A stretch of 46,614 nucleotides of DNA, filler included, from Jimgerdemannia flammicorona (GCA_003990765.1; 2 parts of 2 records of this genome joined end to end with filler, not necessarily neighbours in it); one strand, 5' to 3'. Counted from the first letter of the whole stretch, positions 1-45,501 are shown. The notes: generated by a model from the sequence alone, not told the origin. Made by a program: numbers and translations.

Positions 1-1
1 A

Positions 2-27
<26 letters not shown>
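1..27 (+). repeat. Poly(A) run, possibly the tail of an upstream LINE inserted into the gypsy element
   Basis: 27 A at the window start, similar to the 29-A tail of the LINE at 18988-19016. Upstream context is not visible. Confidence 0.4.
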
Positions 28-32
<5 letters not shown>

Positions 33-78
33 TGATGAACCACTAGCCCTCTTAGAGAACAGTGATGATGAAGAAGAA

Positions 79-486
79 ATCAAAGTCAAGATTCAGAAAA
101 TCCACTCTAATGTAGTTCTACCAGAATATAAGTCAGATAATATAGCTGGAATGGATATTGCCACAGTAGAGAAAACTATATTAGAGCCCCAGATAACTAT
201 CCTACTTATAACTAGTCTGGAAATAACTATTCCAAAGGACTATATTAGGATCCTTAAGACAAGAAGTAGCCTAACTAAGAGTAAGATTACTATCAAAGGA
301 GGAGTCATCAATTCAGACTATATTAGAAAAATACTTCTCATTGCTAGAAACCACAATCTTATAATTCTATTTCTAATCAAGAAGAACTAATTGGTGCAGA
401 TATTGATCTTTCTAGTTCTTCAGCCAAAGATCATAAAAGTCAAAAAGTTGGAGAAAACAGAAAGAGGAAAGAAAGAATTCAGATAT
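79..486 (+). pseudogene. dUTPase domain of the gypsy pol
   Basis: One frame gives LPEYKSDNIAGMDI (motif 1), RSSL (motif 2), GGVINSDY (motif 3) and TERGKKEF (degenerate motif 5 RGxxGFG). One internal stop at 388-390. Confidence 0.85.
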
Positions 487-5795: not shown

Positions 5796-6643
5796 ACAAT
5801 GTTGCGACTATCGAAAATAATATCACATAGTCACATGTCCGTCCCCTTTCCGCGTGGAGATAATCTTATTTTCTTAAAATACTGTGAAACCACGAGACCT
5901 GGAGTGATATCTATGTCGTTATAGGATTGGACCCATTACCAAATTACAACCATATGCATGTTTCGGTACATCTCGAAACCCCAGAGAAGATGCACTACCA
6001 ACGCACGGCTTAACTAACCCGGATAGATCAGAAAAGTCCGTCTGATCAGACAATAAAAGTCGAAATGATAAAAAATAAGGCAGCGATTTGAAATGTGAAG
6101 GCAGAATGCAGCGCATTATAAAATGATCGATTCTTTTATTGGAAGGTACGCCATTTTCGGAGATGTATACGTATTTGTTAGCTGAGAGAATGTAATATCT
6201 CAAGAACGGGAGCCTCCATTGCTCTACTGGCTGTATTATAAAATAAATAAAGCCTAAAGTCGGGAGGCGGAGAGCAGATCGTTGGTAGTTGAGTAGAAGT
6301 GACACACGTGGTGAAGGATGAAAATCGAGTGCCTACGCCCCAGGTCGAGAGGGAAATTGTACTACCATTTACTGATCGTAACGACGGAGATTTTAAGCAT
6401 ATGCGGATTTCCGTGGGCTGATTGTTAATCCCGGCGTCCACAACATTGATAATTACCTGTTATTAACCGAAAATTTTTTATACATAGTTACAAATGATTT
6501 ATTTTGGTTTAGACACAGGAGTTGGGAGTATGTGAGAGAGGTATGTGATAGAGAGTTTGTGCATAGACAGTGACGCTCTATGGGTTTGGTGGGTACCACC
6601 AGCCCGTTTTTGGGTATACCGTATTGAGTCGAGGTCGTTCTCA

Positions 6644-8476
6644 TTACATCATGAATTCATTACTTGTAATTTCCCCAAGGCCTGCATCTGATGTTTCCGC
6701 CAGTGCACTCTTCCTCGCCTTAACCTCCCGTCGATGGTTCCACCAACTTCGTATGCACACGTATATTATGTGGAGTCCGAGAGCTGCAAAAGGTGTGGTC
6801 AAACTGAGGATGCGATGCAAGGTTGTGAGGCAGTCAGCCCGTTGGTGGTTGATGAGCGAAGCGAGAATGCCAATGAAGCCGGCCTGATAGTCGAGAGTTG
6901 GAACAGCCTGTTTAAAGTTTGTGCGTTGATCGATGTATTCGTCAGTGGCGTTGGGGCCTCCAAGCAGAGCTCCTGCCGATTTTAAAAGTGTCAAAGTTAG
7001 TTGAAGTTGTCGGCTTGACAATGCCGAGTAATTTTACGCCCAGGCGGTAGACCCACCTACAATAACGTGCATGTTCCGCGCGGGCGTATTAATGTTGTTC
7101 CCACCGTGAGCTAGTCGGTGGGAGATATTGACGGGTGATTTTTCTGTGCCGGTGATGAAGACCATTCCGATGGGGTTTCTCCCGAGGGCATATTCCAGCT
7201 GCCGGACAGCAAAAGCAGATGCACGCCATGCGGAATGGCTTCCGCGAGTAGTTGGGGAGTCGGCGTACATTTGGGCAAGCCAAGCCGAATTCAGAGCATC
7301 TACAGGTAAATGTGTATATATATATATGAGCACTATATTTAGAGGTCACGGATTGTACGAAAATGCGTGATACTCACATCGGAGGGCACCCGTGTCGCTG
7401 ATATTTTCATAATATAGCATTCCCCCTGGCGTGAATATTGTTCCATATTTGTTATCAAACTTTAGCCACTCCCACATTCTCATATCACAATCCACGACAA
7501 TCGCATCGTCCGCCGCTAGCGTTCTGACGGCCAGTGCGCACATCAAATGCGCTTTTTGATCCCATGATGGCGGAAGACCGCGAATATTAGAGGTGACGGC
7601 GTATTGGCGGATATGGGTATCCAAGTCACGACGGTACGCATATTCCCCTGTGGCTTTGTAGAGCCAGGTGGCCGCCCACGCCAATTCGTCGCCATAGCCA
7701 CTTGACATGTAATGACCACGGAGGCGGGGAACCGAGCTGTTTACAGATCCAAGATATGTGGTAGCAAAGGTGTACATCTGCCGGCCATGGGCGAGGAGCC
7801 CTGCGGCGTACATGGGATCGCTGGCATGTAGAGCAAGTGATGCCGCGGTAAAAGCGGCGGCGGCCTGGTTGTAAAGAATATCGCATTAGCGGTCTGGCGC
7901 CAGCATGGATGACTTGTGAGAGAGTAATGGCATACCTCGCCTGCCAAGTCCGACCCTGGGTTTTGTGGATCAATGAAAGAGACGGGACGACGTGTAGAGG
8001 CTGCGTTTACCCCGTCGAACTGCTGCCAGCTGGCGAGATCAAATTTCGGGTCGCCCACCTACAAGTACAAAATTAGCCGCGCTTGCAAAGGACGCTCCGA
8101 GTGTTTAGCAGTAACAATAACACACCTGTGCAACATATGTATCCTCGTTAGCGTGACAAGCCAACATCCAGTCGGTCGCCCACCGAATCACTCTTGTGAC
8201 ATTATTAAGTTCTCCCACTTCCTCGAAAATGGCTCGGTACTCGATCGCCTGAAAAGATAGCATGGATACTGTGGCGGCAAGCGGGAAACCAAACTTGACA
8301 AAGTCGCTGCTGTCTAAGTAGCCGCCGGAAAGGTCGAGACCGACCGAGGCACCATCGTTGAGGGCAATGTCGGTGCGCCAAGGAACAGTGTTCCATTTCG
8401 GCAAGCGGCCGGATTGCTGGACCTGAAAAAAGACAAGGGACATTTTGAGGAGCTGGTTGAGGGACAAGGTGGCCAT
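6644..8476 (-). CDS. GH9 (endo-beta-1,4-glucanase fold) protein, ~510 aa, 5 exons, substituted catalytic acid, C-terminal hydrophobic segment
   Basis: Exons 8476-8126, 8058-7936, 7864-7378, 7299-7057 and 6972-6644 total 1533 nt. All four introns are GT-AG, 67-84 nt. Motifs: QQSGRLP..VPWRTD.ALNDG..GLDLSGGYLDSSDFVKFGFP, PGSDLAGE, DELAWAATWLYKATG, SWDQK, TPGG, LRYA, GALLGGP..D..R..LDYQAG. An upstream exon or signal peptide cannot be excluded. Confidence 0.9.
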
Positions 8477-9158
8477 ATTGTTTGTCGTGCGCTAATGGTT
8501 ATTGGTTACTTAGGTTTGAGAGAATCGCTGCTAAGCTACTATAATATACCGTTTGCCATGGTCTTTCGTCAAGCCTTTTAAACGATTTATTCATCAGGCT
8601 CCCTTTTTTGGAACACGAGTCAAACATAAAATATAATATAATGAAAGGGGACGGAAATGCAGGTGAGAAAAGTATTGACTTAATCATGTTAGCAAGGAGA
8701 TCAATTTAATGTCTCACATAAGAATGAAAAGCCCTTCGAAGTGTGATTTTATACTCGTGCCCAAAAAATAGAACAAAAACGACGGGGAAATAGTCGAGGA
8801 CGGGTTGGGGCCCGTTTTATGTTTTACCACCTTTTTTTTTGTCTCGGCCATCAGGGTTCAGAAATAGTGTATATTATCTTACCTGGTAAATAAATACAGA
8901 GACTCAATGTACAGGACAGACACAGCAGTATGTGGAATGCAGTATCTGAGAGAACGTCGCTGATGATTTAACCTCTCGCCACCATATCTCACAGTCAATA
9001 TGTGCGGGTATACGAATGGAAATGCCCCTATATGTGTCCACTGCACAGCTTTCATTCCGTTCACACGGCCTGCAAAGTGTCATGTACGGTCACGAGTGAG
9101 GTAGTATAAAAGAATGCCATGAAGCCAGCACCTCGACACCTCGACAAGTGCATAGAAA
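8477..9158. promoter_or_regulatory. Putative bidirectional promoter between the GH9 and GT2 synthase genes
   Basis: 682 bp between divergent ATGs. TATAAAAG on + at 9105-9112 and TATAAAA on - at 8753-8747, each with CACGAG shortly upstream. Confidence 0.55.
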
Positions 9159-11101
9159 ATGGTGTTCTCACTTCGTATTACATTCCGTATTTTCCTTTTA
9201 TTACTCTGCACGATCACCACAATCTCTTATACCGTCCTTCGAGCGCAATACACCATCGACCAACGAACACCAGCAAGGATTTGGTACACCACCCTTGTAG
9301 TATTCCTCGAACTCGTAAACGGGGTTGCGTTCCTTCTGATGCTCCTGGAGCGGGTTAGGTCAAACGCATCGCCGGGCCTCCCCATACCTTCCAGTAAGCG
9401 TGTCCCCGGAGACGTACAACGCAGCTCATCGTCTACCCTTAAGGCCACTGATCTCAATGAGGTCGCTGACAAGTCAAATATAGACGCCGTGTGGCCCACC
9501 GTCACAATCCTAATCACATGCTGTGGAGAGGATCCCGAGGTCATCCGTGGGACTGTGCTCGCTGCCCAGCGCGTGCGGTATCCTGTCGCAAGTAAGGTCC
9601 AGGTCTACCTTTGCGATGACGGCAAGAACCTCGACGGAATACCCCTCCACGTCGACGATCTCTTGCCCATCGTACTCGACCCATCCGCCTTCAGCACCGT
9701 TCGCGCCCCTCCAATTTACATCCGCCGCAAGAAGACCCCGAGCGTTCCACACCACGCAAAGGCCGGCAATTTAAACCATGCCCTGAAATGCACCCCTTAC
9801 TCTGACTTCGTGGCGGTATTCGATGCTGACATGCAATGCGATCCTGATTTCCTGCTCGAAACCGTGTCCAGATTATGCGAGGACAAGCAAGCCGCGTTCG
9901 TGCAGACGCCGCAAAGCTTTACTAATGCTGAGGAAAGTTCCGCGCGTGATCCGTTGGATACAATATCGCGAGTGTATTATAACGTGATCTTGCCGGGGTG
10001 GGCGGCGTGGGGTTGTACCCCATGTGCGGGGACCAACTTTTTAATGCGCAGGGCGGCCATTGACTCGATTGGGGGATTCCCGACTGGGTGCGTAACGGAG
10101 GACTATCTTATGAGCATGAAGGTACTGTGTCGGTTGCTTTTTGGCTTTGATATGAATGCCGCACCTAGTCTGACACTACCTATTTAACAGCTTCACGGAA
10201 AGGGCTGGACCTCCCTCTATCTCAACAAGGTTTTGGCCCGTGGTCTTGCACCCGAGAACATCAAGGACCTGTTCCGCCAACGCTCCCGCTGGGCCAAGGG
10301 CAACCTTCAGATCTGGTTCAACCACAACCCCATAATAGAACCCGGCCTCACTCCCATACAACGTCTTCTCTATATGTCTGTTGGTGTGGGATATCTCAAC
10401 TCCGCCCTCCTCGTATTCTGGATGGTTATCCCTATCTTTCACCTTATCACCGGTATCCTCCCGATTTTCCTGCAGGATACGTGGATGGCATACATCATTG
10501 TGGCGCAACTACTGTTCACGCAGGTCGCGGGAATCTTCCTGTCCATCCCGAGTGGTGGTGATCAATTTACGGAGCATCTGCTATCTTTCTGGTCATCCTC
10601 GCAGTTTGCGTGGATGTTCCAGTACTATCATGCCAAGGTATGCTTCTTGAGTAATTGTTGGAGTTCTAAGCTCGACAAGTTTTGACTACAACTCTTTTGC
10701 AGGCCACGATAGTCTCCTTCCTTGGCCGCGACTTAAGTTTCAAAGTCTCTGACAAGGGTGGCCCACAGCGCAGCCACGTCTCCGCCTCCCTTCGTTTGAC
10801 GTGGTTCAACTTGGTGGTGTCAGTTATTATGCTCGCCGCTCTTGCGTACCGTATTGTCCTCCTTGCCATCAAGGCCAAGAACACCGGCCTTAATCCTCAG
10901 GACGTACAGTATCTGCTATCTGCAGTGTTCATCCTCAACATTATTTGTGTTCAGAGTCAGGTCGTGTTTCTTGCCATCAAAGACAACATCCTCCGCGGGT
11001 GCAGCCACATCTTTGTGTTAGTTTGGCAGAACTTGTCCCTGTTTGGGGTGGGAGCGGCACTGTGCATACTCGCGAAATTGGTGGGATTTTCTGACGTATG
11101 A
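9159..11101 (+). CDS. Cellulose synthase-like processive GT2 (BcsA/CesA/CelA type), ~602 aa, 3 exons
   Basis: Exons 9159-10121, 10191-10637 and 10703-11101 total 1809 nt. Two N-terminal TM segments, then DDG, HAKAGNLN, FDAD, FVQTPQ, TED, RGLAPE, QRSRW, gating-loop-like FKVSDK, and several C-terminal TM segments. No PilZ domain seen. Confidence 0.92.
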
Positions 11102-11699
11102 AAATGGTGCTTACATGAAATAAGCAAAACAAAAATCATTCGAATTTCATATTAAACGAGCTGATTATAAATAGATAGTTCATTTACCAATATGTTGGTC
11201 ATATATAAACCATTCGAATCCTGGGAATGCGAACGATTCCCTTGTAACAGAATTTTGTCGCCTGTAAAGCCCGGAAGTCATCGACGTAAGTGCAAGCACT
11301 TCGTTTGCTTTTCGAAACGATTTTCATGTTTATCACGACTGCCGATGCGCTCCAGCCACCGCAATTAGCGCAGACTGCTTCGATCGTACCACGTGTCGCC
11401 AATGGAGGTAGACGTTGTTTGTTTCACCTGAGGCGTTGACGGTGACGTATTATTTGCAATTGCGGTAGTAGGCCGAACAAAACGAAACTCGGCAAGGGTA
11501 CCAATGGCGGAAAGAACAACCTGCTCGTCTTGAAGCCTTGGAACGCATCTAGAATCGCTTTGTTGCCGTCGACACAAAGCATCACCATTGATGATATCTA
11601 CATCTAGAACAAGCCACTGAAGAAATCCTGTTAGTCAAGTTGCATATTTTAGCACTCCTGCTCAACAAGATGTAATTTTCAAGTTGCAATAATAACCCA

Positions 11700-12875: not shown

Positions 12876-13218
12876 AAGACACTTTTCACTATAATATTCA
12901 GGTGATACAAGACTCAGACAATACTTTCTGCAATATTTTTGATAAAAGGAGACTATCAACATAGATAGCAATAAATGTACTGGTGAGCATGTTGGCCAGG
13001 GGGACAGTAGTACCTTCAACTGGCAATATGTCAGAAGGAGGCAAGAAGATGGTTTAGAGATGCCGGAGCCTTCTATGGTTGGCCATAATACTGGTAATAG
13101 AGGGAGGGGTGAATTGAGGCAGTAAGGAGGGCATCACACCTTTCTCCTATACAATTCATGTTATACAAAACTTCAAGCAACAGTTTTCAACACAACTAGG
13201 AGAAAAGGTACTATCAAA

Positions 13219-15246
13219 ATGTCATCAAGCAAGAGCTCTGACAGGCATACTGGGTCAGGGGGATCTGGAGCTTTTGGCTGGCAAAATGTAGGGAGGGGTT
13301 ATGGCCTGGGGATGGGGGTCTTTAGAGAGTCAAAGAGCAGTGAGGGTTCTGGAGAAGGATAAGAGTTGGGTGGTAATGGGGGAAGGTCTGGCCTCTCAAG
13401 CTTTGTGGACAAGGTGAAGGGAAGTGGATGGCCAGCTGGAGACAGGACTAGTGCTACTGTGGGAAAGGGCAAGGTGAGCCTTGGGAGGGGGGGAGGCCCT
13501 CAGGCTAGGGACATGAGCATAGGGTCTGGAGGTGTGGTGGCTGGGGGGGGGGACTGCTGATAGAGGTATAACGGAGAATCAGAAAAAAAAAGAGATGTGA
13601 CAGCTGATAGTGGAGTAGGGCTGGGGCTACCGATTTGGAAGGGGGACCTGGCTGATGGTGTAACAGGGCTGGTGGTAGCACTATTACTCAAGAAGTCAGT
13701 TTCCGAGTTCACAGCTACCTTGTGCTTCCAGGACTTGGCAGTGATGGCAAGGATAGTCCTGGGGCTTATCTTGCAGCAGGTGGCTAGGGCAGCCTCAGTG
13801 AAGTTCCTGAAGGGGCTGGAGGGAGTGGAGGTAGGCTTTGAGGAGGTGAGCCCACTGGATGAGGCAATGAAGACTGGAGTGGTAATTGGTGAAGTGGTGG
13901 TCTCTATAGTGCACTGCCTTAGGTGAGACCCCAGAGTGGTACAGCTACTAGTCAAAGGGGTACCTATAGTGATGAAGGTTGAGACTAGGAGAAGGGTAGA
14001 GGAGGTGGTGGCAGAGTATAGCAATATAGTGAATATCGGATTCCAGGTGTGGGAGGGGACAGCAATCAGGACAGATGATGTGGATGTCAGGATTAGGCTG
14101 GCAGGAAGGGAGGCCACTGGAAAGGTGAGTGACTGGCCTTCAGTGCTGATGTGGGGGGCTGTTGTCTGTAGGGTGTCGAGGGTGAAGGGGAGTGAAGAGG
14201 AGGAGGAGGACTTGTTGGAAGTGCTGGAGAAGTTGAGTGGTGCAGTGGAATGGAGGGCGAAGGCCTGGAAGCTCTTTGAGGAGATGATGTATCTGGAGGT
14301 TATGGAGGGGAAGTATATCCACATGGACAAGAGGCAGTGGGAGTGAGCACAAGGGCACAGGAGGCAGAGGGAGCTTTTGGCAAGTATGAAAGTAGAGGTG
14401 AAGAAGAAGGCAGATGGGGCCAAGGTGACTGGGGGCATCGAAGCCAGTATCTGGGCTGGTAAAGGAGAGGGGGAGGTGGAGGCAGGCAAGGAAGAAGTTG
14501 GGAAGGTATCGAGCAAGGACCCCTATACCGATGGCACTTTTGAGGTCTGGGAGCAGAAATTGGATACCACCTCCCCCCCTCTTATCAGGAGGGGCCTGGC
14601 TGTAAAGAGAAGGACAACAGAGGATGTACTGATGAAGGGGGCCCAGCAAGTGTGCTTTAGGGTCCCTGATGTGGCAGAAGGGGACCAGGTGGTGGTAGTT
14701 GGTGAGGATGAGCTGGTGGATGTCTCTGAGGAGAAGTGGGATGAGGCTGCCAGTGTAGGTGCTGACACCATGATGTTGGATGCAGGACAGCCAGGGACTC
14801 CGAGTGGGAAGGAGGTGGGGAACTTGCTGTGGATGAGCAAGGTGATGGACAACCTTGTGGCTGAGGTATTGGGAGAAGTGGACCTGTGGGTAATACCTGA
14901 TGAGCATTGGGCATGAATTCTGTGCAGAGATGGAGTAGTAGAAGCACTGAGGGCAGAGATTCTTACAATCTTCCTGGAGGAGGAGGGATATGAGGTCGAT
15001 GAGGTGAGGAAGGTGGAGCTGATGGTGGTCACAGGTGAGCGAGCAGCCTACTATTGGGCTGAGCATCATGGTTTGTAGCTCTGGAGGGAGGCCTGTCTGG
15101 AGTATCATGAGGACTTTGAGGAGAGAGAAGATGGGGCAATGGTAGAACTTCTGGGAGGGTTGGAGGCATAGAAAGCTGGGGAAAGGGAACTAACTGCTGA
15201 ACATGACTTAGACTTGGTATAGGAGGAGCAGAATGTGGACTTGTAG
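13219..15246 (+). pseudogene. LINE A ORF1 (~675 codons, several stops)
   Basis: ORF fragments at 13366, 13597, 13936 and 14377 share one frame from ATG 13219 and are colinear with LINE C ORF1. Confidence 0.75.
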
Positions 15247-15281
15247 AGGATAGGATCACTATTTAACATTATTTCTTATAA

Positions 15282-18200
15282 ATAGTACAACTAACATTTT
15301 CTCTTTGAATGTAAATGGGTTGAGGGGACCTGGGTGGCATAAGAACATTTTTACTTGGCTCAAGAGAATGGAGGCTGATCTCTTTTACTACAGGATGTTC
15401 AATGTGAGGATGAGAATGATTAGGTGGAGTGGACTAGGGAATGGGGTGGGGCTACTGCTTGGTTTGGAAAAGTGGCGATTTTGGTAAGAAAGGGTAGAGG
15501 AGACTTGGAGGGAATCAGAAGCTGGGGTGATCACTTGGTCTGGGGAGATTGGCAGCAGCCAGAGTAGGAGTCAGTGAGAGTTGACTCTTGCTACTGCCCT
15601 ATAGTTAGGGGTGAGAGGACTGCATGGATTAAGGAGCTGCTGGAGGAGGGTATTCTCTTAGAGGAAGGGGTCAATGTTCTAAGTGGGGACTTTAATATGG
15701 TTCGGGATTAGCATCTGGACAGAACTGATAGAGAGAGGAGTACAGGGGGGAGAAGTAGAGGTCGGGATGTATGAGAGGAGATAGAGAAGTTGAGTTCCTT
15801 AGGGGATATGAGCAGAACATGTTGGGGCAATGCCAGGGTCTACACATATTGGGTGAATGGCTTAGATACAAGGATTGACTGGATTCTGATGGCAGAGTGT
15901 TAGGGTTCCAATGTTTGAAAGACATTAGAGGTGGAGTGGTGCCCATGGTCTGATCACTAGGGACTGTTGGGGCAGGGGCAGTTTGGGGGGAGTAGAGACA
16001 GACCCAGACATTGGCACCTTAACTCCTCCCTGCTGGCTGAGAAGGGATTGTGGGACTTATGGGTGGAGGACATTCAGGTGAAGGTTTTTGTCTAGAGGCA
16101 TGAGGGTTTGTCTGTGGGTGTCCATTGGATGAGATTGAAGGAGGTGGTGAGGGTCTATTGGGGGAGAGTGGGTAGAGATGCTGGGAGGTGGAGGAGGGAG
16201 CACATGAGGTATGCTTCCAGCAGGCTGAGGAGACTGCAAATAGATTGGACAGATTTGCTTACTTCTGATGGAGTGGAGGATTGGAGGATAGAGTGGGCTA
16301 AATTGGAGATAGTGGAACTGTGACAGGTATTGAGAGAAGAGGAGAAGACTCATATGTATGGAATGGCTGCTAGGCTATGGTGGCAGGGGCTTGAGGAGGA
16401 TGAGCAGCCTACTAGGTACTTATCAAGACTCCTCAAAGCTAGGAGGGTGTGACATCAGTGGGATGGGATCTTGGATGCCAATGGGGACATAGTGTATGGC
16501 ACACAATAAATCTTGGGGGTTTTGAAGGAGAGATGGTAGAGTTTGTAGAGTGAGGGGGAAGGGGGTGCTGATGGGGTAGAGATTGCTGATACACTAGGGG
16601 AGTGGGAGCCACTGTGAGTAGCTGGACTGGGTAACTTGATCTTACCAGTACAAGGAGAGGAGATCCAGAGTGTCCTTGTGGCAACTAAGCTTGGAACAGC
16701 ACCTGGAGAGGATGAGTTACTATGGGACTTCTGGAAGAAGATAGTAAAGATCCCAGGCATTTTGGGTGAGATGGCTGCTCTCTATGACCATGTTCTTCAG
16801 AGTGGTGAGTGGGTTGGAGAGCAGGACCTTGGACTGGTAGCCTTATTATATAAAGACTAGGGGAGAAGAGAAGACTGGAAGAACTGGAGGCTGATAATGC
16901 TTCTGAATATAGACAGGAAGATGGTGACTAAGGTGATTGTCACAAGGCTACAGAAAGTTGCCCAACAGGTGCTGGGGGAGGAGCAGTGGGGCTTTGTTGG
17001 GAGCAGACTTATAAGAGATGGAATTGCATGGGTGCATGGTATCATTGAAGTGGCCCAGGCTTGTGGACTGGATGGAAGATTGGTCTTTTTGAACCAGGAG
17101 AAGGCCTATGACCATGTATGGTGGGTCTGGCTGAGCAAGGTGTTGGATCAAATAGGTATTTCTCTAAGATTTTGGACATCTATATTGAATCTGCTAGAGA
17201 GCAGTCAGGCAGCACTGATATGTAATGGCCACTGAGGTTTGGCATTCTCCTTGGATAGAGGAGTTCCTCAGGGGGATCCTCTGTCTTCTATTCTCTATGC
17301 CCTTTCATTGGAGCTATTGATGGATAGGATTTGCAGGAAGGTAGCAGGGCTCTCTATATATGGTATAGTGTGGAAGGTGGGGGCCTTTGCTGATGACATG
17401 GTGGTTGAACTTAGGTCTGTGGCAGATGTCAAGATACTTAAGGAGACAGTGGAATGGTATGAGGCTCACTCAGGGGCAAAGCTCAACTGGCATAAGTGTG
17501 AGATGATGGTGCTTGGAAATGGGCTAGTGGGTGGGGACATCATTGGAACAATTGTCCCTACTGGTGAGGCAGTGTGGTATCTGGGCATCTTCCTTTCTGT
17601 ATATGGTTCTGTCTTGCCACAAGTGTGGTGGGAGAGCAGGGTGACCATTTGGGGAGAGGCCCTTTGAAGTTGGGGAGGCCACTATATCTCTCTGGTAGGG
17701 CAGGTGACAATTCTGAATGTATACTGGTTCCTCAAGCTGTGGTACATGGCCTATCACCTTGACTTCTCAGCTTAGGTGGTGAAGAGACTGACAAAGATGG
17801 CTAGAGATTGGATCTGGGCAGAGAGGAGGTCTCAGATAGGTTGGGATACTCTTGTAATACTAGTGGTCAGGGGAGGTCTTGGCCTTGTGGACTTCCCTAA
17901 GAGGCTGTACTGCTTGCAAGCCTGGTAGTTGAAGAGAGCTGCTGAACTGCAGAGAGGGGGTTGGGTGCCACTGCTGCAGAAGGTGTGGGAGATGAGGACT
18001 TCCTCTCATGGGTCCTCTGGAGACCTGCTCTCTTTGGTGGGACTGAATGGAACTTGGCAACTGTGGTTTAAGGACTTTTGGTAGAGAGTGGTAGATGGAG
18101 CACACCACATTGGTCTGCACTGGCAAGGCAATAAGGGAGAGGTGGTGTGGGGGCCTGATATGTAGTGATGGGATAGACTGCTCCTGGGGGGTGCTCCACT

Positions 18201-19020: not shown

Positions 19021-22000
19021 CAGTAAGGAGGGGAGAGGATGACCTTTGCTGATAAGGTCAAGATAAGAAGGATGGCATCAGGTCTGGATAGTTGGTTGGG
19101 ACTGGAAAAGGCATCATTAACTTTAGTTAGGGGTCAGGGAGGGACTCCCATGGGAGGGTTGGGTAGTAGGAGAGAGGGGGAAGTAAGGGCTGGAGATATG
19201 ACCACTAATAGAGCTGTGACTAGGAATCTGGAAAAAATCCAGATGTGACAGTTGTTGGTAGATCAGGACAGGGGGAGGGCATAAGGTCCAGGGATCTGGT
19301 AGATGGCATGATGGAAATAGTGTCAGCACTATTACTCAAAAAGTTGAGGTTGGAATTTACTATCACATTGTGCTTCTAAGACTTAGCAGTAACTGCAAGG
19401 ATGATTTTGGGGTTGATGATATAGGAGGTGAAGAGGGCAGCTTTGGTGAAGTTCTTGAAGGAGAAAGAAGGAGTCAAGGTTGGATTTGAGGAAGAGATAT
19501 CATTGTTGGAGGCCATGGAGAAGGGGGTAGTGGTGGGCAGAATAGTGGTTCTTATGGCCAGATATATACACTGAGACCCCTGAGTGGTACAGCTAACAGT
19601 GCTGAATCTTCCTATAGTATCAAGGAAGAAGGCCAGGAAGCTGATTATAGAGGTGGTCAAGGAGTATGGGGAGATTATGGACATTGGGTTCAGGGTCTGA
19701 GAGGGTACTGAACTCCAGACAGAAGATGTTGATGTCAGGGTGAGACTGACTGGAAGAGAGAATATGGAGAAGACAAGGAACTGGCCTGTAACTCTTAAGT
19801 GAGGTCTAGTTGAGTACAAGGTCTTGTGGGTGAAAGGAATGCTAAAGGAAGAGAAGGACTTGCTGGAGGCTCTTGAGAATCTGGTGGGAGCAGTTGAGAG
19901 GAAGAGACTGGCTTGGAAGGAGTATGAAGCCAAGATAGTGGTAGAAGTTGTGAATGGAAAGAGGATCAGGATGGATAAGGTGGCCTGAGAGAAGACACAG
20001 GAGAGGTGAATCCAGAAGGAGTTGTTGGAGAAGCTAGGAGAGAGTGTGGCAGATAGTGGGGTGAGAGAAGGTAGTATTGGACTGAGAGAGAGCACCTGGG
20101 CTGGGGAGCACCAGATGGCTCAGAATGCAGCCTAGGATGGATCGAGTGAGGAGAAAGGGAGTGGTATAGTGGAGGATACAGAAATGAGAAAGGAAGTATA
20201 CCCCCAGTATGGTGTCTCAAGTGGGGCAAAGGGGGAGAATGAACTACTAGATATACTAAAGGATGAGTGGGATGAGTTAGAGAGGAGGAGTGCTCTGGTG
20301 GACCCTGTGGTGGGGGTTAAAGGGGTCACTCAGAGTGTTGCTAAGGCAGTAGATAAAGAGAAGTGGCTGTAAAAGACTCTGGAGAGAGTGGCAGCTGAGG
20401 AGCTGAGGGGAGAGGACTTTTAGGTACTAAGTGACAGGCATTAAGAGGAAATCCTTCATAGGGAGGAGGTGTCAAGAAAGATTAGAAATGAGATCCTGGC
20501 AGTGCTCTTGGAGTTTGAGGAATATCAAGTTGATGATCAGAGGGAGGAGGCCCTTAGAAGAATTGTAAATAACTAGGCAGTATACTTGTGGGGCTCAAGG
20601 AAGAGGTTGGAGAAGTAGAGAATGGTATGCACAAATTATTGGGCAGAAATAGAGGTTGTGGACAGAGTGGAGTGTTAGGAAATCTTGGAAGCACTGGATG
20701 CTTAGGTGGTAGCAGAGGATGAGTTGGAGGCAGAGTGGTATATAGATCTGGCTAGTGATGAGATAAGCATAGAATTCTAGACTGAGCTCTCAATAGCAAA
20801 CATTTTTCATTATAAATAGTACAACTAGAATATTTTCTTTGAACATAAATGGGTTGAGGGGAGTGATACGGTAAAGGAATATCTTTGGCTGGCTGAGGAG
20901 ACTGGATGTGGATCTCTTTTTACTATAGAATATATGGTATGAGGTAGATATAGACTTACAGGATTGGACTAGTAAATGGGGTGGGGCAGCTGTGTGGACT
21001 GAGTAGATGGGTATTCTGATTTGAAAGGAGATGGGGAATATTGGGGATATTGAACATTGTGGGAGTAGGTTGGAGTGGGGAGTATGGAAAAGGCCTGGAT
21101 AGAACCCTTTGACTATTGAGTCATATTATTGCCTAGCTGAGAGAGAGGAATGCATAGATTGGATTAGAGATCTGAGAGAGGCTGGTATTATAGGTGAGGC
21201 AGAGATTGACTGTCTGGAGGGTAATTTCAACATAGTACATAATAATGAGATAGACAGGACTAATGGTAAGAGAGAAATGAGAGATAAAAGTGGTGGATTG
21301 GATGATTGAATGGAGATTGAGAGGGTGAGCTCCTTAGTTGACTCAGAGTGATAGCTCTGAGTAGATCACTGAATTTATACCCACTGGGTTGCAGGGCTGG
21401 GCTCCAGGATTGACTGGGTGTTGATGGCAGAGTATTGGGGAGTAGATGTCTGGGATATACTGGAGGTAGTTTGGTGCTTGTGGTCAGATTACTGGGGTCT
21501 GATTAGTAGTAAGAGATTTGGGGGAAGTGGGAATGGACCCAGACATTGGTGACTGAATTCTTCTTTGTTAGAGAATGGTTTCTTATAGATGGACTGGGAG
21601 GTGGAAATTATTGGAAAGATTAGTAGGTGGTATGAGCAGGAACTGAAGATTGGGGATTGCTGGTGGTGGCTGAAATTGAGTACTCAGAGGTACTGAAGGA
21701 AGGCAGGGAAAGGGAGGAGTACTCAGTAGTAGCAGTGAGTATAATGGGCTTCATAAAGATTGGTGGTGCTTCTGGGGAGATGGGTGGAATCACTGGAGGA
21801 TTGGGGGGCAGCTGACTGGTGAATTCTGTAGATACAAAAGAAAGTGGATGAGCTGAAGAAGGTGCTACAGATAGAGGAAGAGGTTCAGATAAAGGGGATG
21901 GTGGTGAGACTGCAGTGGTAGGAGTTGAAGGAGGGGGAGAGGCTCACTAGATTTTTTTCATAGTTGCTCCAAGCTCAGAGGACCAGACAGCAGTGGGAGA

Positions 22001-23263
22001 GTATTTTGGATAAGAATGGAGAGATGGTGACAGGGACTCCTAAGATTTTGGAATTGCTGAGGACTTATTGGGGGAATTTATAAAGTGAAGAAGAAGGGGG
22101 TGAGGATTCTCTGAACATTGAACAGCAATTGGAAGATTGGCACCCAGACCCAGCATTAGGCCTGGGGATACTGAGAGATCCAGTATGAAGAGAGGAAGTA
22201 TATAAGGTCTTGGCTTCAACAAGCAAGAGGACAGCTCCAGGAGAGGATGGACTTCTCTGGGATTTTTAGAAGAAAATGGTTGGGGTGGAGGTGGTATTGG
22301 AGGAGATGTCAGAGATGTATGGTGAGGTCCTTCAGTCTGAAACTTGGATTGGGGGCCAGCACCTAGGGCTGGTTTCCTTACTCTATAAGGATAAGGAGAG
22401 AAGAGAAGATTGGAAGAACTGGTGACTAATTATGCTCCTTGATATAGACTGCAAGCTGGTGACAAAGATCTTAGTGACTAGATTGCAAGAAATAGCTCAG
22501 CAGATACTAGGAGTGAAGCAGAGGGGATTTGTTGGGGGTTAGTTGATCCTAGATAGAACTGCCTGGATTCATGGAGTGATTGAAGGGGCTTGGGCAGCTG
22601 GGGTTAATGGTTAGTTAGTGTTTCTGGATCAAGAGAAGGCATATGACAGAGTGAGAAGGGTCTGGCTGGAAGAAGTACTGAAATATATGGGAGTTCCCCC
22701 AGTATTCAGAAGATCATTAATCAGTCTATTGGAGAACAGTCAAGTAATATTGATAGTAAATGGGTACAGAGGGGTGACTTTTCTGCTGAGTTGCAGGGTG
22801 CTACAAGGAGATCCTTTGTCACCCATCTTATATACCCTTTCCTTGGAGCCTCTATTGGACCAAATTCAGTATCGAATTGGGGGTTTGGATATTTTGGAGA
22901 TTAACTGGAAGATTGGGGCTTTTGCAGATGATATAGTGGTTGGACTGGATTCATTAGCAGATGTGAGGAATTAAGGAGAACTGTGGAATGGTATGAGAGG
23001 CTCTCAGGTACTCAACTCAACTAATATAAGTGTGAGACTCTGGTGCTAGGCAGTGGAATTGTTAGTGATAATGTGATTGGAACAGTAGTTCCAGCAAGAG
23101 AACTAGTTTAGTACTTGGGGATATACTTCTTGGTATATGGGTCTCTTCTGCCCTATATATGGTGGGAATAGTAACTACTAGTATAGAGAAATACTTTTTT
23201 GAAGTGAGGTGGTCAGTATATATCTTTGGTAGGAAGGATGATGGTGCTAAATATGTATTGGCT

Positions 23264-23363
23264 NNNNNNNNNNNNNNNNNNNNNNNNNNNNNNNNNNNNN
23301 NNNNNNNTTAATTAATTAANNNNNNNNNNNNNNNNNNNNNNNNNNNNNNNNNNNNNNNNNNNN
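23264..23363. other. Assembly gap with artificial TTAATTAATTAA six-frame stop linker
   Basis: N44-TTAATTAATTAA-N44, exactly 100 nt. Confidence 0.95.
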
Positions 23364-25032
23364 GCCGAAGCCAATTTGCAAGCATCACACCATTCTTATC
23401 ACCAGCCTCTGCGCGCTTCAGAGTATCGGCATGATCGAGAAGTAACAAACTCGCCGGATAACCTACGAATTCCTTGATGATGTCGGATTCTAACTGAACG
23501 ACGTCGTCATCCCGGTAGCTCCGATTCTTCAACTGCGACTGAATCTCCTCCGGAAATATGACATCAACCAGACGTCTAAGATATTCAATAAACGATATCC
23601 CCATGAGATCGAATTGCCAGGCGAAGATTCCACCGGGGAAGAGATGGGCCGTTCGTCTCACTGCTTCCATAGCCAACGCCGTCTTGCCCACTCCGCTGAT
23701 ACCCTCAATTGTGAATACACCACAAGTCTGATTGCTGCGATTTGCCATGCGCTTCAAAGCATAATTCAATTCGACAAGCTCCCTCTTGCGTCCGAAAAAC
23801 GAGGATGTGCGCAGGTTGTGGAGGTTGTTCCGAGGCATGTGTAGATTTATAATTGGGTCACCCCTTTCGCATTCAAATGTGCCGTCGTTTGCTCTAATCG
23901 TCGACGAATAGAGCACCATGGCGCCAGGGAAATAGTCACGCTTCCGGACGTTGTCGTAGCTGTGGAGGAAAACGCGCGCCCTCCACATCGCCTTCTCAAC
24001 TGTGGAGTCACTAGCAAGAACCTGGTAGAACTTGGATTCGAATTCGCGGGCGAGATCATCTGGTAAGTCACAATACGACCCAATGGTGTACGGAACACCA
24101 TGCTCGAGCAGAATTCGGGCGACGTCACGAGTATTGCAAGCAGAGAGGAATGCGAGTCGCAGGTGTTTTGGCACGTTCAAGTGTGTTGTGTTGACGAATT
24201 CGGGTTCACCGGATTCTTTATCTTCGAAGATGAGGGCCCTCGCACCAGCATTCGATTGGCAGTGACCCATGAAATGAAGTGCTGTGGCTGTCTCAGGGCT
24301 GTCCATGAGTACTACGTCCATTTGGTCAACAGTAGGTGGGAAAACACGTTCCAATATTACTTTTTTTCTGTTGGCCGAGTGGCTATTTATAAAGCTTAGG
24401 AACTGGTCGCTCAAATTCAAAGCTGAAAGATTTGCATCACAATTGCCTGGTGGGATAATAGGGTCCGGTACGACAGCGACAATGCGCAATGGAGATTTCA
24501 GATGCTGATGATATTCCTGAGGGTCCCCTCTGGTTCGGCTCGGTTCTTGACTTATAAAGGGAGCTCTCAAAAAGCTCGTTAATTTCTGTCTCGGTCCTGG
24601 ATTCGAATGGATAGGAACCATATTGTACATGCGAGCAAACATGCATTGGTGTACCAGATATGCATGATTACCCCACGTGTACTCCCAGGGGATAACGTCG
24701 AGATCATGATCATGGTTGAGCTCAAGCAGGATCCGACCCGTTGGGTTAGGCGGTAATATTTTATCAAGCATCTTATGGGCTGGACTGGAGTCATTCTCCG
24801 AAAAGAGGGCCCTAAATAACAACTTTCCGTATTTCCTGAGATCAGCAGACTTGGGTTGCTCGTTGAATACTTCGACAGCAATGAATCGACCCTCCTCGAG
24901 TCGTTGAAGGTTGAAGGAATGGCTATATATGAGCTCCGCCTGCTCATCGTCGATGGCGGAAACCTTGACGCGGACCTTGATCTCTTTGGAGTTGTCGCTG
25001 GTGGTATTATCCTTTAACAACGATACTTGCAT
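23364..25032 (-). CDS. CHAT (caspase-like) protease domain plus STAND/NB-ARC-like NTPase, NLR-like protein; 3' end lost in the gap
   Basis: Uninterrupted ORF of >550 codons from ATG 25032. CHAT motifs IPWE, ALHFMGH (His) and AFLSAC (Cys), then FFGRKRELVEL, Walker A GISGVGKT and Walker B LLLLDHAD. Confidence 0.88.
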
Positions 25033-25647
25033 GATTGGGAATGTGGGTTTGCAGGTATGTACGCAAGTCAAGTACAATAAGCTTGTGTTTGACACACTCG
25101 CTCTTGCGAAACAATCCTGCCTGATTCATCTTTTTCGGGTCGAACCCGATTGGAATGTATTTCCCAATCAGGCATACTCGGCGACATTCGATTTGATTGG
25201 TGAAAGGTATAATAAATCAATTTTTCTCTATCTGACACTCTATAATACCAAAATTTTTATATAAATAAAAGAAAATAGATGTTAAATATATTACTTTAAT
25301 ATCTACTTTGAATAATTATATTTCAAAAATTTCAATATAAAATAAATCTATATCAAATAGATATTTAAGAATATATATAATTAAAATTAAAAATCTATTT
25401 CAAATTATTGAAAAATAATATTAGAAAAAATATATTATACTTTTATATATCTCTTTCTCTATAACTGAGAATATTACTAAGTAGATAATTTTTATTTTGA
25501 AAAAAATGATAATAATATATTTTTTATTATAAATATAACTCAATTTATTCAAAAATGAAATTTGTTTAAAGTTATTTATATCTGGTATCAACTATAGAGA
25601 ATATATTGTCAACTAAATACTAATCAGTTAATAGAAAATGAATAATT

Positions 25648-26745: not shown

Positions 26746-29700
26746 ACATCTTTCTCCTAGACAATTTATGTTATACCAACTTCAAGCAGCAGTTTTCAAT
26801 ATAATTTAGAGAAAAGGTACTATAAAAATGTCATTAAGGAAGAGTTCTGATAGGTGTGCTGAGTCTGGTGGATCTGGGGTATTTGGCTGGCAGAAGGTGG
26901 GGAGAGGTTATAGACTGGAAATGGGGGCCTTTGGAGAGTTGAAGGGGAGAGAAGATTCTGAAGGAAGACCAGTAATGGGTGAAACTGGGAGTAGGCCTGG
27001 CCCCCCTAGCTTTGCAAATAAGGTGAAAGTGAGTGGATGGCTAACTGGAACTAGGGTGGGTGCTGCTGAGGGGAAGGGCAAGGTAAGCATCAGGAGGAGG
27101 AGTAGTACTCAGATAGGGGATGTGAACATAGGTACTAGAGGAGCTGTGGCTGGAGGTGTGACTGTTGATAGGAGTATGACAGAAAATCAGAAAGAAAAAA
27201 GAAATGTAACAGCTGATGGCAGAATGGGGCAGGGGTTTCCGATGTAGAAGGGGGACCTAGCAGAGAGTATAATGGGGCTGGCAGTAGCATTATTGCTCAA
27301 GAAGTCAATCTCGGAGTTTGTGGCTATCTTGTATTTCCAGGGCTTGGTGGTGACTGTGAGAATGGTCCTGGGGCTTATCTTAAAGCAGTTGGCTGAAGCT
27401 GCCTTATTGAAGTTCCTGAAGGGTCTGGAGAGGATTGAGGTGGGCTTTGAGGAGACAGGTCTGCTAGATGAGGCTCTGAAGACTAGAGTGGTGATCAGGG
27501 AAGTGGTGGTCTCTATGGTATACTATCTTAGGTGGGATCCCAGAGTGGTTCAGCTATTGGTGAAGAGAGTGCTTACAGTAATAGCAGTTGAGACGAGAAA
27601 GAGAATTGAGGAGGTGATGGCAGAGTATAGTAATGTTGTTGATATTAGTTTCCAGATATGGGAGGGAACCACTATCAGGACAGGTAATATTGATGTCCAG
27701 ATTTAGCTAATAGGAAAGGAGGCCACTGGAAAGACAAGTAACTGGCCATCAGTGATACTATGGGGGGCTTTTATCTATTGGGTGTCAAGGGTGAAAGAGA
27801 GTGAGGAGGAAGAGGAGGATCTACTGGAGGCTCTGAAAGAGATGCATGGGGCTGTCGAGCAGAGAGCAAAATTCTGGAAGAAATATGTAAAGTTGACATA
27901 TTTGGAGATTGTAGAGAAGAAGTATATTCGCACTGACAAGAGGTAGTGGGAGTAGGCCCAGAGGCATATGAGACAGAGAGAGCTGTTGGCAAGTATGAAA
28001 GGAGGAGTGAAGAAGAGGGTTGATGGGACTGAGGAGTCTGGGAATATTAAAGTCAGTGTCTGGGCTAGTAAAGGAGGAGGAGAGGTGGAGGCAGACAAGA
28101 AAGAGGTTGGGAAGATGCCAAGCAAGGATCATTATACAGATAGTACATTTGAAGTCTGGAAGTAGGATTTGGATAACACCCTCCCTCTCTTGTCAGGAGA
28201 GGCCCAGTTGTAATAAGAGAGGTAGTAGAGAATGTACCAATGCGAGGTACTCAGCAAGTATACTTTGGAATTCCCAATATAGTAAAAGAGAGTCAGGTAT
28301 TGGCAGTTAGCAAGGACAAGCTGGTGGATATCCCAGAGGAGAGGTGGGATGAGGCTGCTAGTGTAGGAGCAGATATTATAATGCTAGATGCAGGGAGGCC
28401 AGAGATGCCTGGAGGAAAGGAGGTGAAGAACCTGCTGTGGATGAGCAAGGTAATGGATAACCTTGCAGCTGAGGAGTTGGGAGAAGTAGACTTGTGTGTG
28501 ATGCCTGAGGAGTACTGGGTGTGGATTCTGTATAGAGATAGAGTGGTTGAGGTGCTGAAAACAGAGATTTTTGCAATTTTTCTGGAAGAAGAGAGATACA
28601 AGATTGATAAGATGAGAGAGGCTGAGCTGGCAGTTGTTGCTAGTGAGTGGGCTGCCTACTGTTGGGCATAGCATTATGGTTTGCAGCTCTGGCAGAAGGC
28701 CTGTCTGGAGTATCATGAGGACTTTGAGGAAAAAGAGGATGGGGAGATGGCTGAACTTCTAGAAAGATTGGAGGCAAAGGCAGCTGAAGAGAAGGAACTA
28801 GCTGCAGAACTTAGCTTGGACTTAGTACAGAAAGAGTTGAATGTAGATTTGTAGATGATGAGATAGATAATTAACTTTATTCCTTATAAATAGTACAATT
28901 AATATTTTCTTTCTGAATGTGAATGGATTATGGAGTTCTGAGTAGTATAAGAACATTTTTACTTAGCTTAAGAGATTAGAGGCTGATCTCTTTTTACTAC
29001 AGGATGTATAGTATGAGAATGAGGAGGATCAGGTAGAGTGGACTAGAGAATGGGGAGGAGCTACTGCTTTAATTAGCAAAGTGGTGATTCTCGTGAGGAA
29101 GGGTAGAGGAGATTTGGGTGAGATCAGAAGCTGGGGTGACTATTTGATCTAGGGAGAATGGCATAGATTTGGGTAGGAATCAGTGAGAGTTGGCTCCTGC
29201 TACTGTCCTGCAGTTAGGAGAGAGCAGATTGAGTGGATTAGGGATCTTTTGGAAGAGGGCATTCTCTTGGAGGAGGGCATTCTCTTAGAGGAGGGCACTC
29301 TCTTAGAGGAGGGCATTCTCTTAGAGGATGGGGTCAATGTTCTGAGAGATGACTTTAATATGGTACAGGATCTCTGGGTAGATCAAACTGATAGAGAGAG
29401 GAGTGCAGATGGGAGGAGTGGTGGTCTGGATAAGTGAGAGGAGGTTGAGATCCTTAGCTCCTTAGGGGATATAAGTAGAATATAGTAGGGCAACAGGAGA
29501 GTCTATATGCAATAGATGAATTGATTGAGTATGAGAATTGACTGGATTCTGATAGCAGAATGTTCGGGTATTGATATTTGAAGGAGTCTGGAGGTAGAGT
29601 GATGCCTATGGTCTGATTACCGGGGGCTTTTGGGGCAGAGGCAGTTTGGGGCGAGTGGAGATGGATCTGGACATTAGTGCCTTAACTCCTTTCTGCTAGC

Positions 29701-31929: not shown

Positions 31930-31964
31930 TTAGGGGTAGGGTTAGGGGTAGGGTTAGGGTTAGG
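31930..31964 (+). repeat. Interstitial telomeric tract (TTAGGG with GTAGGG variants)
   Basis: TTAGGGGTAGGGTTAGGGGTAGGGTTAGGGTTAGG. Confidence 0.9.
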
Positions 31965-37317: not shown

Positions 37318-37339
37318 TTGGGTTAGAGTTAGGGTTAGG
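37318..37339 (+). repeat. Telomeric tract between copies 1 and 2
   Basis: TTGGGTTAGAGTTAGGGTTAGG. Confidence 0.85.
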
Positions 37340-45486: not shown

Positions 45487-45501
45487 AGGGTTAGGGTTAG
45501 G
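45487..45501 (+). repeat. Telomeric tract between copies 3 and 4
   Basis: AGGGTTAGGGTTAGG. Confidence 0.85.

Follow-up and report, generated by a model that had tools for sequence, protein, structure and literature searches.

Can a true fungus build a cellulose-like polymer, and would a protein with a glucanase fold assist its synthase? To our knowledge, true fungi are taught to lack cellulose. In the literature searched, one characterised fungal BcsA-like synthase was found, TFT1 of Ascomycota, which makes mixed-linkage glucan. The question is raised by a locus of Jimgerdemannia flammicorona, an ectomycorrhizal fungus of the Endogonales (Mucoromycota). The locus occupies positions 6644-11101 of the 46,614-nucleotide stretch analysed here (the window), and we read it on both strands from 6400 to 11400, together with stop-to-stop open reading frames (ORFs). 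It contains two complete, divergent, spliced gene models, a family 2 glycosyltransferase (GT2) on the plus strand and a glycoside hydrolase family 9-like protein (GH9) on the minus strand. With slightly better than even confidence, we read the locus as a two-part beta-glucan synthesis module, made of the GT2 synthase and a membrane-tethered, non-catalytic GH9 partner.

The two genes and their transcripts

The original prediction had placed two intact spliced genes head to head, 682 bp apart. Our gene models agree with it, and RNA contigs skip all six introns. The GT2 gene (plus strand, join(9159..10121, 10191..10637, 10703..11101)) has a coding length of 1809 nt for 602 amino acids plus stop, and its introns are 69 and 65 nt long. 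The GH9 gene (minus strand, join(8476..8126, 8058..7936, 7864..7378, 7299..7057, 6972..6644)) encodes 510 amino acids plus stop in 1533 nt and has four introns, which are 67, 71, 78 and 84 nt long. Every intron of the two genes is of the GT..AG type, with lengths of 65-84 nt over all six, and the ATG-to-ATG spacer is 8477..9158. The locus is contained in two public runs (X1, X2) from two studies. The features are the following.

6644..6972, minus strand: GH9 exon 5 plus stop, with Val425 at 6902-6904, a transmembrane helix of residues 456-475 (6752-6811) and a basic 35-residue tail.
7057..7299, minus strand: GH9 exon 4, with LRY and SHR (HHR in active enzymes); 6.2e-11; supported by the protein record P0230 and by X1 and X2 contigs.
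7378..7864, minus strand: GH9 exon 3, residues 159-321, with SGYGDELAWAATWLY and WDQK; Glyco_hydro_9 1.7e-24; X1 contig cover.
7936..8058, minus strand: GH9 exon 2, residues 118-158, with VGDPKFDLASW, Leu standing in place of the DH histidine.
8126..8476, minus strand: GH9 exon 1 in the ATG-8476 model, residues 1-117, with the first barrel helices and the DSSD base motif at 8303-8314; Glyco_hydro_9 3.8e-34.
8477..9158, no strand assigned: divergent intergenic region, including the alternative annotated GH9 5' exons (~8883-9068) and a micro-exon (8550-8574).
9070..9438, minus strand: intron and upstream exon, antisense to the GT2 start codon (intron) and to codons 5-94 (exon 9172-9438).
9159..10121, plus strand: GT2 exon 1, residues 1-321, with two N-terminal transmembrane helices and the GT-A catalytic domain; Pfam Glyco_tranf_2_3 1.6e-13.
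9612-9623 (DDG), 9753-9770 (HAKAGN), 9819-9833 (DAD) and 10092-10103 (TED), plus strand: motifs of GT2 exon 1.
10191..10637, plus strand: GT2 exon 2, residues 322-470, with QRSRW at 10278-10292 and transmembrane helices; Cellulose_synt 6.9e-11.
10703..11101, plus strand: GT2 exon 3, residues 471-602 plus stop, with the putative gating-loop-like motif FKVSDK at 10739-10756 and C-terminal transmembrane helices.

Intron skipping in the contigs was exact at the predicted junctions, all six in X1 and three in X2. Both GT2 introns were skipped in X1 and X2, and both introns flanking GH9 exon 2 were skipped in X1; at the 67-nt GH9 intron the shorter arm of the contig joint is just 25 letters long. 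Since the contigs are spliced, they derive from RNA. The X2 contigs are identical to the window, and X1 carries single-nucleotide polymorphisms (SNPs) that match the variant P0001. This is the 602-residue NCBI record 'nucleotide-diphospho-sugar transferase [Jimgerdemannia flammicorona]', which differs from the GT2 model at 3 of 602 residues and is listed at 100% identity over GT2 exon 1. Both genes are expressed in both strains.

One X1 contig with a CT..AC joint revealed a minus-strand intron (~9070..9171, 102 nt), linking 8889..9068 to 9172..9438. The minus-strand RNA over the 5' end of GT2 is probably either a long 5' untranslated region of GH9 or a separate, perhaps regulatory, antisense RNA. 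Because its spliced exon lies over the 5' coding part of GT2, the transcription units overlap head to head.

For GH9 exon 1, contig cover was observed at 8123-8423 only, and 8424..8888 is covered by no contig. In the 542-residue NCBI model of GH9 (P0320), upstream exons replace the ATG at 8476, so the first conserved GH9 helix is lost; this model also omits 15 residues that are present in RNA contigs. NCBI carries a partial 197-residue J. flammicorona GH9 model as well. The end of one X1 contig falls precisely on 8423, a base that a strong acceptor (cAG/G) shares with the end of the 25-nt micro-exon in the 542-residue model. These data fit two GH9 5' isoforms, one keeping ATG 8476 and the first GH9 helix and the other splicing past them. 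A third possibility is a candidate upstream exon at 8687..8550 (46 residues), which has a hydrophobic start (maximum 15-residue hydropathy 1.61) and joins in frame via a 58-nt GT..AG intron. It lies outside the RNA contig cover and would give GH9 a signal-peptide-like N-terminus.

The 542-residue GH9 protein and P0001 are each on a 29,698-nt contig, which suggests the same GT2-GH9 linkage in the other strain; P0230 is on a 23,263-nt contig. These records also bear on the origin of the DNA. The contig could have come from another eukaryote co-sequenced with the fungal material, as neither protein has a close fungal relative and the best word-based match of exon 3 is a mite record. We consider this very improbable, given near-identical copies in the records of two strains (P0001 and P0320; P0230) and RNA contigs from two studies, one set identical to the window and the other with the strain SNPs of P0001.

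The synthase and the altered GH9 active site

The GT2 protein had been predicted to be a BcsA/CesA-like synthase, and this was borne out: every motif of processive beta-glucan synthases is kept, and the best solved relative is bacterial BcsA. Judged by its motifs and profile matches, GT2 is a predicted processive synthase of the BcsA/CesA superfamily. GT2 and Cellulose_synt Pfam matches fall on two of its three exons. The catalytic motifs CDDG (residues 152-155), FDADM (221-225), VTED (312-315) and QRSRW (351-355) are invariant in both alignments of relatives and align with those of BcsA (5EJ1). FKVSDK (residues 483-488), which we take in name and role to be an FxVTxK-like gating-loop motif, has F483, K484 and K488 invariant in the five-sequence alignment of the GT2 clade. 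The hydropathy profile has two N-terminal and several C-terminal peaks flanking the GT domain, with eleven overlapping segments in all.

The best NCBIfam match of GT2 was TIGR03030 CelA (9.6e-68, 228.8 bits), well ahead of PgaC (7e-14), MdoH and NodC (4e-05). Among solved structures, BcsA (5EJ1/4HG6) reached ~1e-37, with 304 aligned residues spanning DDG, HAKAGN, DAD, TED and QxxRW, followed by barley CslF6 (8e-17) and, more distantly, plant CesA (~1e-14); no other solved structure reached 0.001. A search of a protein-cluster atlas with P0001 returned generic GT2 clusters only. An identity as bacterial BcsA proper was rejected: the CelA score lies below its equivalog cut-off of 699.1, Pfam gave no PilZ match in GT2, and the window ORFs that were scanned included no BcsB. 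In the accessible part of a preprint (10.64898/2026.09.17.752320), the definition of the 'switch motif' of TFT1 and CSLF6 is a structural one, and the motif has no diagnostic value at the sequence level. Sequence does not tell whether GT2 makes beta-1,4 or mixed-linkage glucan.

The GH9 protein keeps the family fold in its profile matches. Pfam Glyco_hydro_9 (PF00759) was found on four of the five exons (E 3.8e-34 to 8.9e-07), covering profile positions 3-444. The state of its motifs was judged by alignments to solved GH9s (1KS8, 8U49, 1JS4) and 20 relatives. The DxxD base pair is kept as DSSD (residues 55-58; D55, D58), aligned with the DAGD of the three solved enzymes. In the catalytic-acid column of 21 aligned GH9s, Glu was found in 19, Gln in one, and Val (Val425) in the window protein, which reads QAVPTLDYQAG against NEVACDYNAG of solved enzymes. 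The GH9 records of both strains have Val at this position. Two further motifs of the window protein are altered, DLASW standing against DH..W in most rows and SHR against HHR, again in most rows; both histidines have roles in GH9 enzymes. WD.K and LRY are intact in the window protein, as is the Tyr of SGY, and its sole hydrophobic helix is C-terminal (residues 456-475). The idea of a working glucanase as the partner was not supported by these results, since the catalytic Glu is Val425 in both strains and the DH and HHR histidines are replaced too.

Is the gene then decaying? It sits on a long branch (1.2-1.8 changes per site), yet its five-exon ORF is intact. The strain differences in GH9 are three synonymous and one non-synonymous. 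SNPs were counted at 10/2859 in the coding sequences of both genes versus 7/379 in transcribed non-coding sequence (Fisher p 0.002), where some of the non-coding SNPs sit near contig ends. Because of the intact ORF despite the long branch, the 3:1 synonymous excess and the low SNP density in coding sequence, we conclude that the GH9 gene is not decaying and is still under constraint. From its sequence it is probably a GH9-fold pseudo-enzyme, a non-hydrolytic partner that binds glucan without hydrolysing it.

Loss of catalytic residues was also seen in two stand-alone GH9-like proteins that group together (SH-like approximate likelihood ratio test, SH-aLRT, 94-96), namely P0122 from a Logan contig, with EAAN instead of DAGD, and P0286 from Nematostelium gracile, with DSSS and Gln.

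Linkage in relatives and the origin of the two partners

The pairing of GT2 with GH9 recurs elsewhere, as a synteny check found. Metagenome contigs were scanned with the five-sequence alignment of the GT2 clade, which gave 366 pattern matches and 190 relatives, and a GH9 profile was run over the six-frame ORFs of the best 80 of the 190 loci. A GH9 domain was present in 39 of these 80 loci, always on the same strand as GT2 and just downstream of it. When at least 2.5 kb of downstream sequence was available, the fraction was 33 of 42, against 6 of 38 for shorter loci. Twenty ORFs carry GT2 and GH9 without an intervening stop, GT2 and PF00759 were confirmed by Pfam in three fusion ORFs, and in the fusions the last membrane helix is directly followed by GH9. 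GH9 is absent from nine informative loci, which comprise three bacterial PilZ-type BcsAs (one beside BcsB), one GT2-GH6 fusion and five loci with GT2 only. Five of 13 distinct fused GH9 domains keep DAGD and Glu; the other eight have lost both DxxD bases and the acid Glu. Since the GT2-GH9 association is recurrent and both window genes are expressed, a shared function is plausible.

Such environmental GT2-GH9 fusion proteins are common and 857-1543 residues long (for example L009:6014-10561, L045:37-3582 and L050:9946-12597). A named one is P0045 of Chlamydomonas sp. UWO241, a 1939-residue fusion in which HMMER left the C-terminal part of the GH9 domain unaligned. Applied to 185,579 prokaryote species genomes, this motif scan returned just 21 distant relatives (best E 1e-14), and 0 of the 21 had GH9 nearby. 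Because the prokaryote relatives are few and distant, and because all four named members are eukaryotes, the GH9-linked GT2 clade is probably eukaryotic. ORF density was tried as a eukaryote-or-bacteria test for the metagenome loci and was set aside as uninformative at 63-77% GC. No paper on a GT2-GH9 fusion, a synthase-paired GH9 pseudo-enzyme or a Mucoromycota cellulose synthase was found in the literature searched, which misses most subscription journals.

Did the two genes arrive together? Of 4187 candidates from the word-based search with GT2 exon 1, 1106 were relatives. GH9 exon 3, run with HMMER against the full set of 1.84 billion representatives, gave 933 relatives, none below 1e-30 except the gene's own fragment. 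FastTree placed GH9 with the fungal GH9s of Synchytrium, Nowakowskiella, Syncephalis, Piromyces and Melanogaster (SH-like support 93 and 97). A quick IQ-TREE tree under a mixture model, built without the fused domains, did not resolve the position of GH9. The IQ-TREE set that included them put GH9 with fungi (SH-aLRT 92) and the fused GH9 domains in a clade of their own (98). In approximately unbiased (AU) tests, holding GH9 with fungi improved on the free search by 10.1 log-likelihood (lnL) units (p 0.76), holding it with bacteria gave p 0.50, and holding it with the GT2-fused GH9 domains cost 17.0 lnL units (p 0.055). GT2 groups with Chromosphaera perkinsii, green algae, Leptophrys and GT2-GH6 fusions (SH-aLRT 94, SH-like 94), in a clade that is patchy among eukaryotes and separate from the Ascomycota clade.

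The sequence comparisons thus gave two partners that seem to have different histories, and transfer as a pair is therefore disfavoured. We think it probable that a fungal GH9 paralogue was recruited to form the module, and not that the pair was imported. The original prediction had raised horizontal acquisition as a pair as a possibility; this was not upheld, as GH9 goes best with GH9s of chytrids, Zoopagomycota, Neocallimastigomycota and Basidiomycota and is disfavoured with the fused clade. A joint transfer from a bacterium or alga, with introns gained later, is accordingly rated improbable. In its favour, GT2 has no close fungal relative (best 38%), its nearest named relatives being an ichthyosporean, green algae and a rhizarian, and GT2-GH9 linkage is common in its clade; the AU tests do not reject GH9 with bacteria (p 0.50), nor, narrowly, with the fused clade (p 0.055). 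The fungal placement of GH9 in the best tree and the separate clade of the fused domains speak against it, however, and so does gene order, since the window genes are separate and divergent while in relatives GH9 lies downstream on the same strand. The few prokaryote relatives, none with GH9 nearby, point the same way.

The trees also bear on whether GT2 could be a distant fungal member of the TFT1 (CslO-like) group, making mixed-linkage (1,3;1,4)-beta-glucan and not cellulose, with an optional role for GH9. AfTFT1 is a demonstrated fungal synthase of mixed-linkage glucan (MLG) in the available text of 10.64898/2026.09.17.752320. Ascomycota GT2s, taken as TFT1-like from names and lengths in a tree set without the AfTFT1 sequence, form a 23-row group with the window clade (SH-aLRT 96). 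Holding the window GT2 together with Ascomycota was not quite rejected (p 0.063), but it cost 25.9 lnL units. The TFT1 lineage shares 70-96% identity with AfTFT1, as far as the same preprint's accessible part goes, whereas the window GT2 has only 26-27% identity to three Ascomycota rows in the alignment (31-32% in BLASTP against exon 1). Moreover, the partners linked to its nearest GT2 clade, GH9 and GH6, have folds of beta-1,4-glucanases. We regard membership of the TFT1 group as possible, with the odds against it.

Lastly, the two genes may be neighbours by chance. GH9 would then be a drifted or repurposed wall-remodelling paralogue of Endogonales, acting on the plant's or its own wall, and GT2 would work alone, as AfTFT1 seems to do in yeast. 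GH9 is indeed multi-copy, with 4-5 genes in each of four Endogonales genomes in the part of PMC12574304 (Table S4) available. This count, together with a host from the Mucoromycota, also removes the force of the earlier argument from the rarity of GH9 in Dikarya. The window GH9 fits stand-alone fungal GH9s better than GT2-fused ones, and AfTFT1 alone enabled MLG production in Komagataella, according to the accessible portion of the bioRxiv preprint 10.64898/2026.09.17.752320. On the other hand, given 5 GH9 genes among ~13,700 and assuming random gene order, chance adjacency would be expected at ~7 in 10,000. GH9 is linked to GT2 relatives in most informative loci, the acid loss parallels that of many fused partners, and the divergent, overlapping transcription units are both expressed in the same two samples. 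We therefore find chance neighbourhood doubtful, a little more so than membership of the TFT1 group.

The setting of the locus belongs to the same question, as an island in rearranged, transposon-rich DNA would favour chance neighbours. The pair lies inside a GC-richer island at ~6-11 kb (45-53% GC). The island had been described as walled in by dead transposons, which is correct for the right side, where three decayed copies of an element bearing reverse transcriptase (RT) follow; the left flank is AT-rich DNA. Likewise, the pair are the only recognisable genes within the island but not in the window, which has an intact, stop-free 605-residue ORF between the retroelement copies (23311-25125, minus strand; CHAT domain, 1.1e-11; weak AAA_16 match, 5.7e-05).

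The decayed direct copies lie at 13169-18079, 19231-23272 and 26778-31729, with 60-81% identity, and the element measures ~5 kb and contains RVT_1 fragments. On the plus strand of the copies, G exceeds C to an unusual degree (GC skew up to +0.56). A fragment of a dUTPase domain (9.2e-12), perhaps part of a retroelement, lies at the window's left edge (1-387, plus strand). Telomere-like TTAGGG runs are short and degenerate; matches to two units with 1 mismatch number 8, where 0.49 would be expected. Such runs occur on the plus strand at 31930-31965, 37323-37340 and 45491-45502, and no long terminal telomere tract was found in the window.

A candidate module for glucan synthesis

How would the two proteins work together in the proposed module? 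GT2 would make a chain from UDP-glucose and pass it through a channel of its own; a beta-1,4 glucan resembling cellulose, or else one of mixed linkage, would be the product. GH9 keeps the fold, both base aspartates and most cleft residues, and without the proton-donor Glu it most likely would not cut. Held at the membrane by its C-terminal helix, it would instead grip or guide the growing glucan, a role that has been proposed for the degenerate GH6 domain of tunicate CesA; it would thus be a non-catalytic counterpart of KORRIGAN or BcsZ. The two genes are transcribed divergently from overlapping units. The outside-facing topology of GH9, its non-hydrolytic binding role, the substrate, the product and the joint working of both proteins are what we infer for this module.

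By analogy, the module is most likely a split, divergently transcribed counterpart of the GT2-GH9 fusions and of tunicate GT2-GH6. The fusion of Chlamydomonas sp. UWO241 and the environmental fusions belong to the same broad GT2 clade as the window (support 94). However, they are single polypeptides or same-strand neighbours with GH9 downstream, and their GH9 clade is apart from that of the window. Ciona CesA likewise joins a BcsA-like GT2 to a glucanase-fold module that lacks a key catalytic residue and is thought to be non-hydrolytic. Its GH6 domain has a mutated key residue and 'seems functionless' in the accessible part of PMC10334666. In contrast to the window, that module is GH6 and C-terminally fused, whereas the window GH9 is a separate divergent gene with its own membrane helix; in trees, the window GT2 falls close to the GT2-GH6 group without being part of it.

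In plants, KORRIGAN has endoglucanase activity and a type II anchor at its N-terminus. A plant GH9 row, labelled KOR-like by eye, has its helix at residues 19-49, whereas the window protein has a C-terminal helix and no acid Glu. Plant CESA works with this membrane-anchored GH9, according to the available part of PMC10334666. A KORRIGAN-type identity of the window GH9 was rejected, as its only helix is C-terminal, the acid is lost, and it falls outside the plant clade in trees. In the bacterial BcsA/BcsZ/BcsB system the partner is a GH8, whereas here it is a GH9, and GT2 has neither PilZ nor a BcsB neighbour. AfTFT1 is, like the window GT2, a fungal BcsA-like GT2 without PilZ. Its lineage belongs to an Ascomycota clade separate from the window GT2, and no glucanase partner is mentioned in the part of 10.64898/2026.09.17.752320 that was available. 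A Zygnema preprint places the 'CslP-like' BcsA-like CesAs of oomycetes, tunicates, amoebae and red algae beside the CslO/TFT1 clade, in its accessible part (10.1101/2023.01.31.526407). Within the same fungal GH9 tree group, P0124 of Melanogaster broomeanus has a C-terminal transmembrane helix and a short tail, as the window GH9 does. A signal peptide, the catalytic Glu and DAGD are all present in P0124, whereas the window protein has Val at the acid position and no proven signal peptide. Type I membrane-anchored fungal GH9s of the basidiomycete kind combine a signal peptide, a GH9 ectodomain, a C-terminal transmembrane helix and a short cytosolic tail; of these, the window protein shows the helix and a basic tail, and the upstream exon at 8687..8550 is a candidate source of the first.

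Several results weigh against the two-part module. Co-expression consists of presence in two samples only. GH9 read from ATG 8476 has no signal peptide, and its alternative N-terminus is a candidate only; if the GH9 domain faced the cytosol, it could not meet the extruded chain. Neither protein has a close homologue (best GT2 match 38% identity over 65% of the query; GH9 39-45%). The tree placements are weak, as none of the four AU tests gave p < 0.05. The window GH9 is not kin of the GT2-fused GH9 domains, so the fusions support the module by analogy only. The GH9 genes of the Endogonales genomes are treated as (plant-wall) cellulases in the available portion of a 2025 comparative study (PMC12574304), and papers on oceanic fungi and on Mucor mention GH9 only as a cellulase.

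With these points counted, the two-part module is still our preferred reading, and a wider one can be offered tentatively. A dead GH9 may be a regular, non-hydrolytic and usually fused subunit of widespread eukaryotic BcsA-like synthases, on which this Endogonales fungus would have converged independently with one of its own fungal GH9 paralogues, now without the acid residue, placed head to head with such a synthase. We think this broader picture possible, and clearly less probable than the module itself. If this independent recruitment of GH9 is true, a lineage of true fungi outside Ascomycota would build a cellulose-like polymer through a pair of synthase and pseudo-glucanase. Together with the environmental fusions, over half of which are dead, and tunicate GH6, the locus points to a general non-catalytic role of glucanase folds in glucan synthesis. 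The GH9 counts of early-diverging fungi should not be taken simply for counts of plant-wall cellulases, and the locus is a candidate for a cellulose-like or novel beta-glucan in the walls of Endogonales or at their interface with plants.

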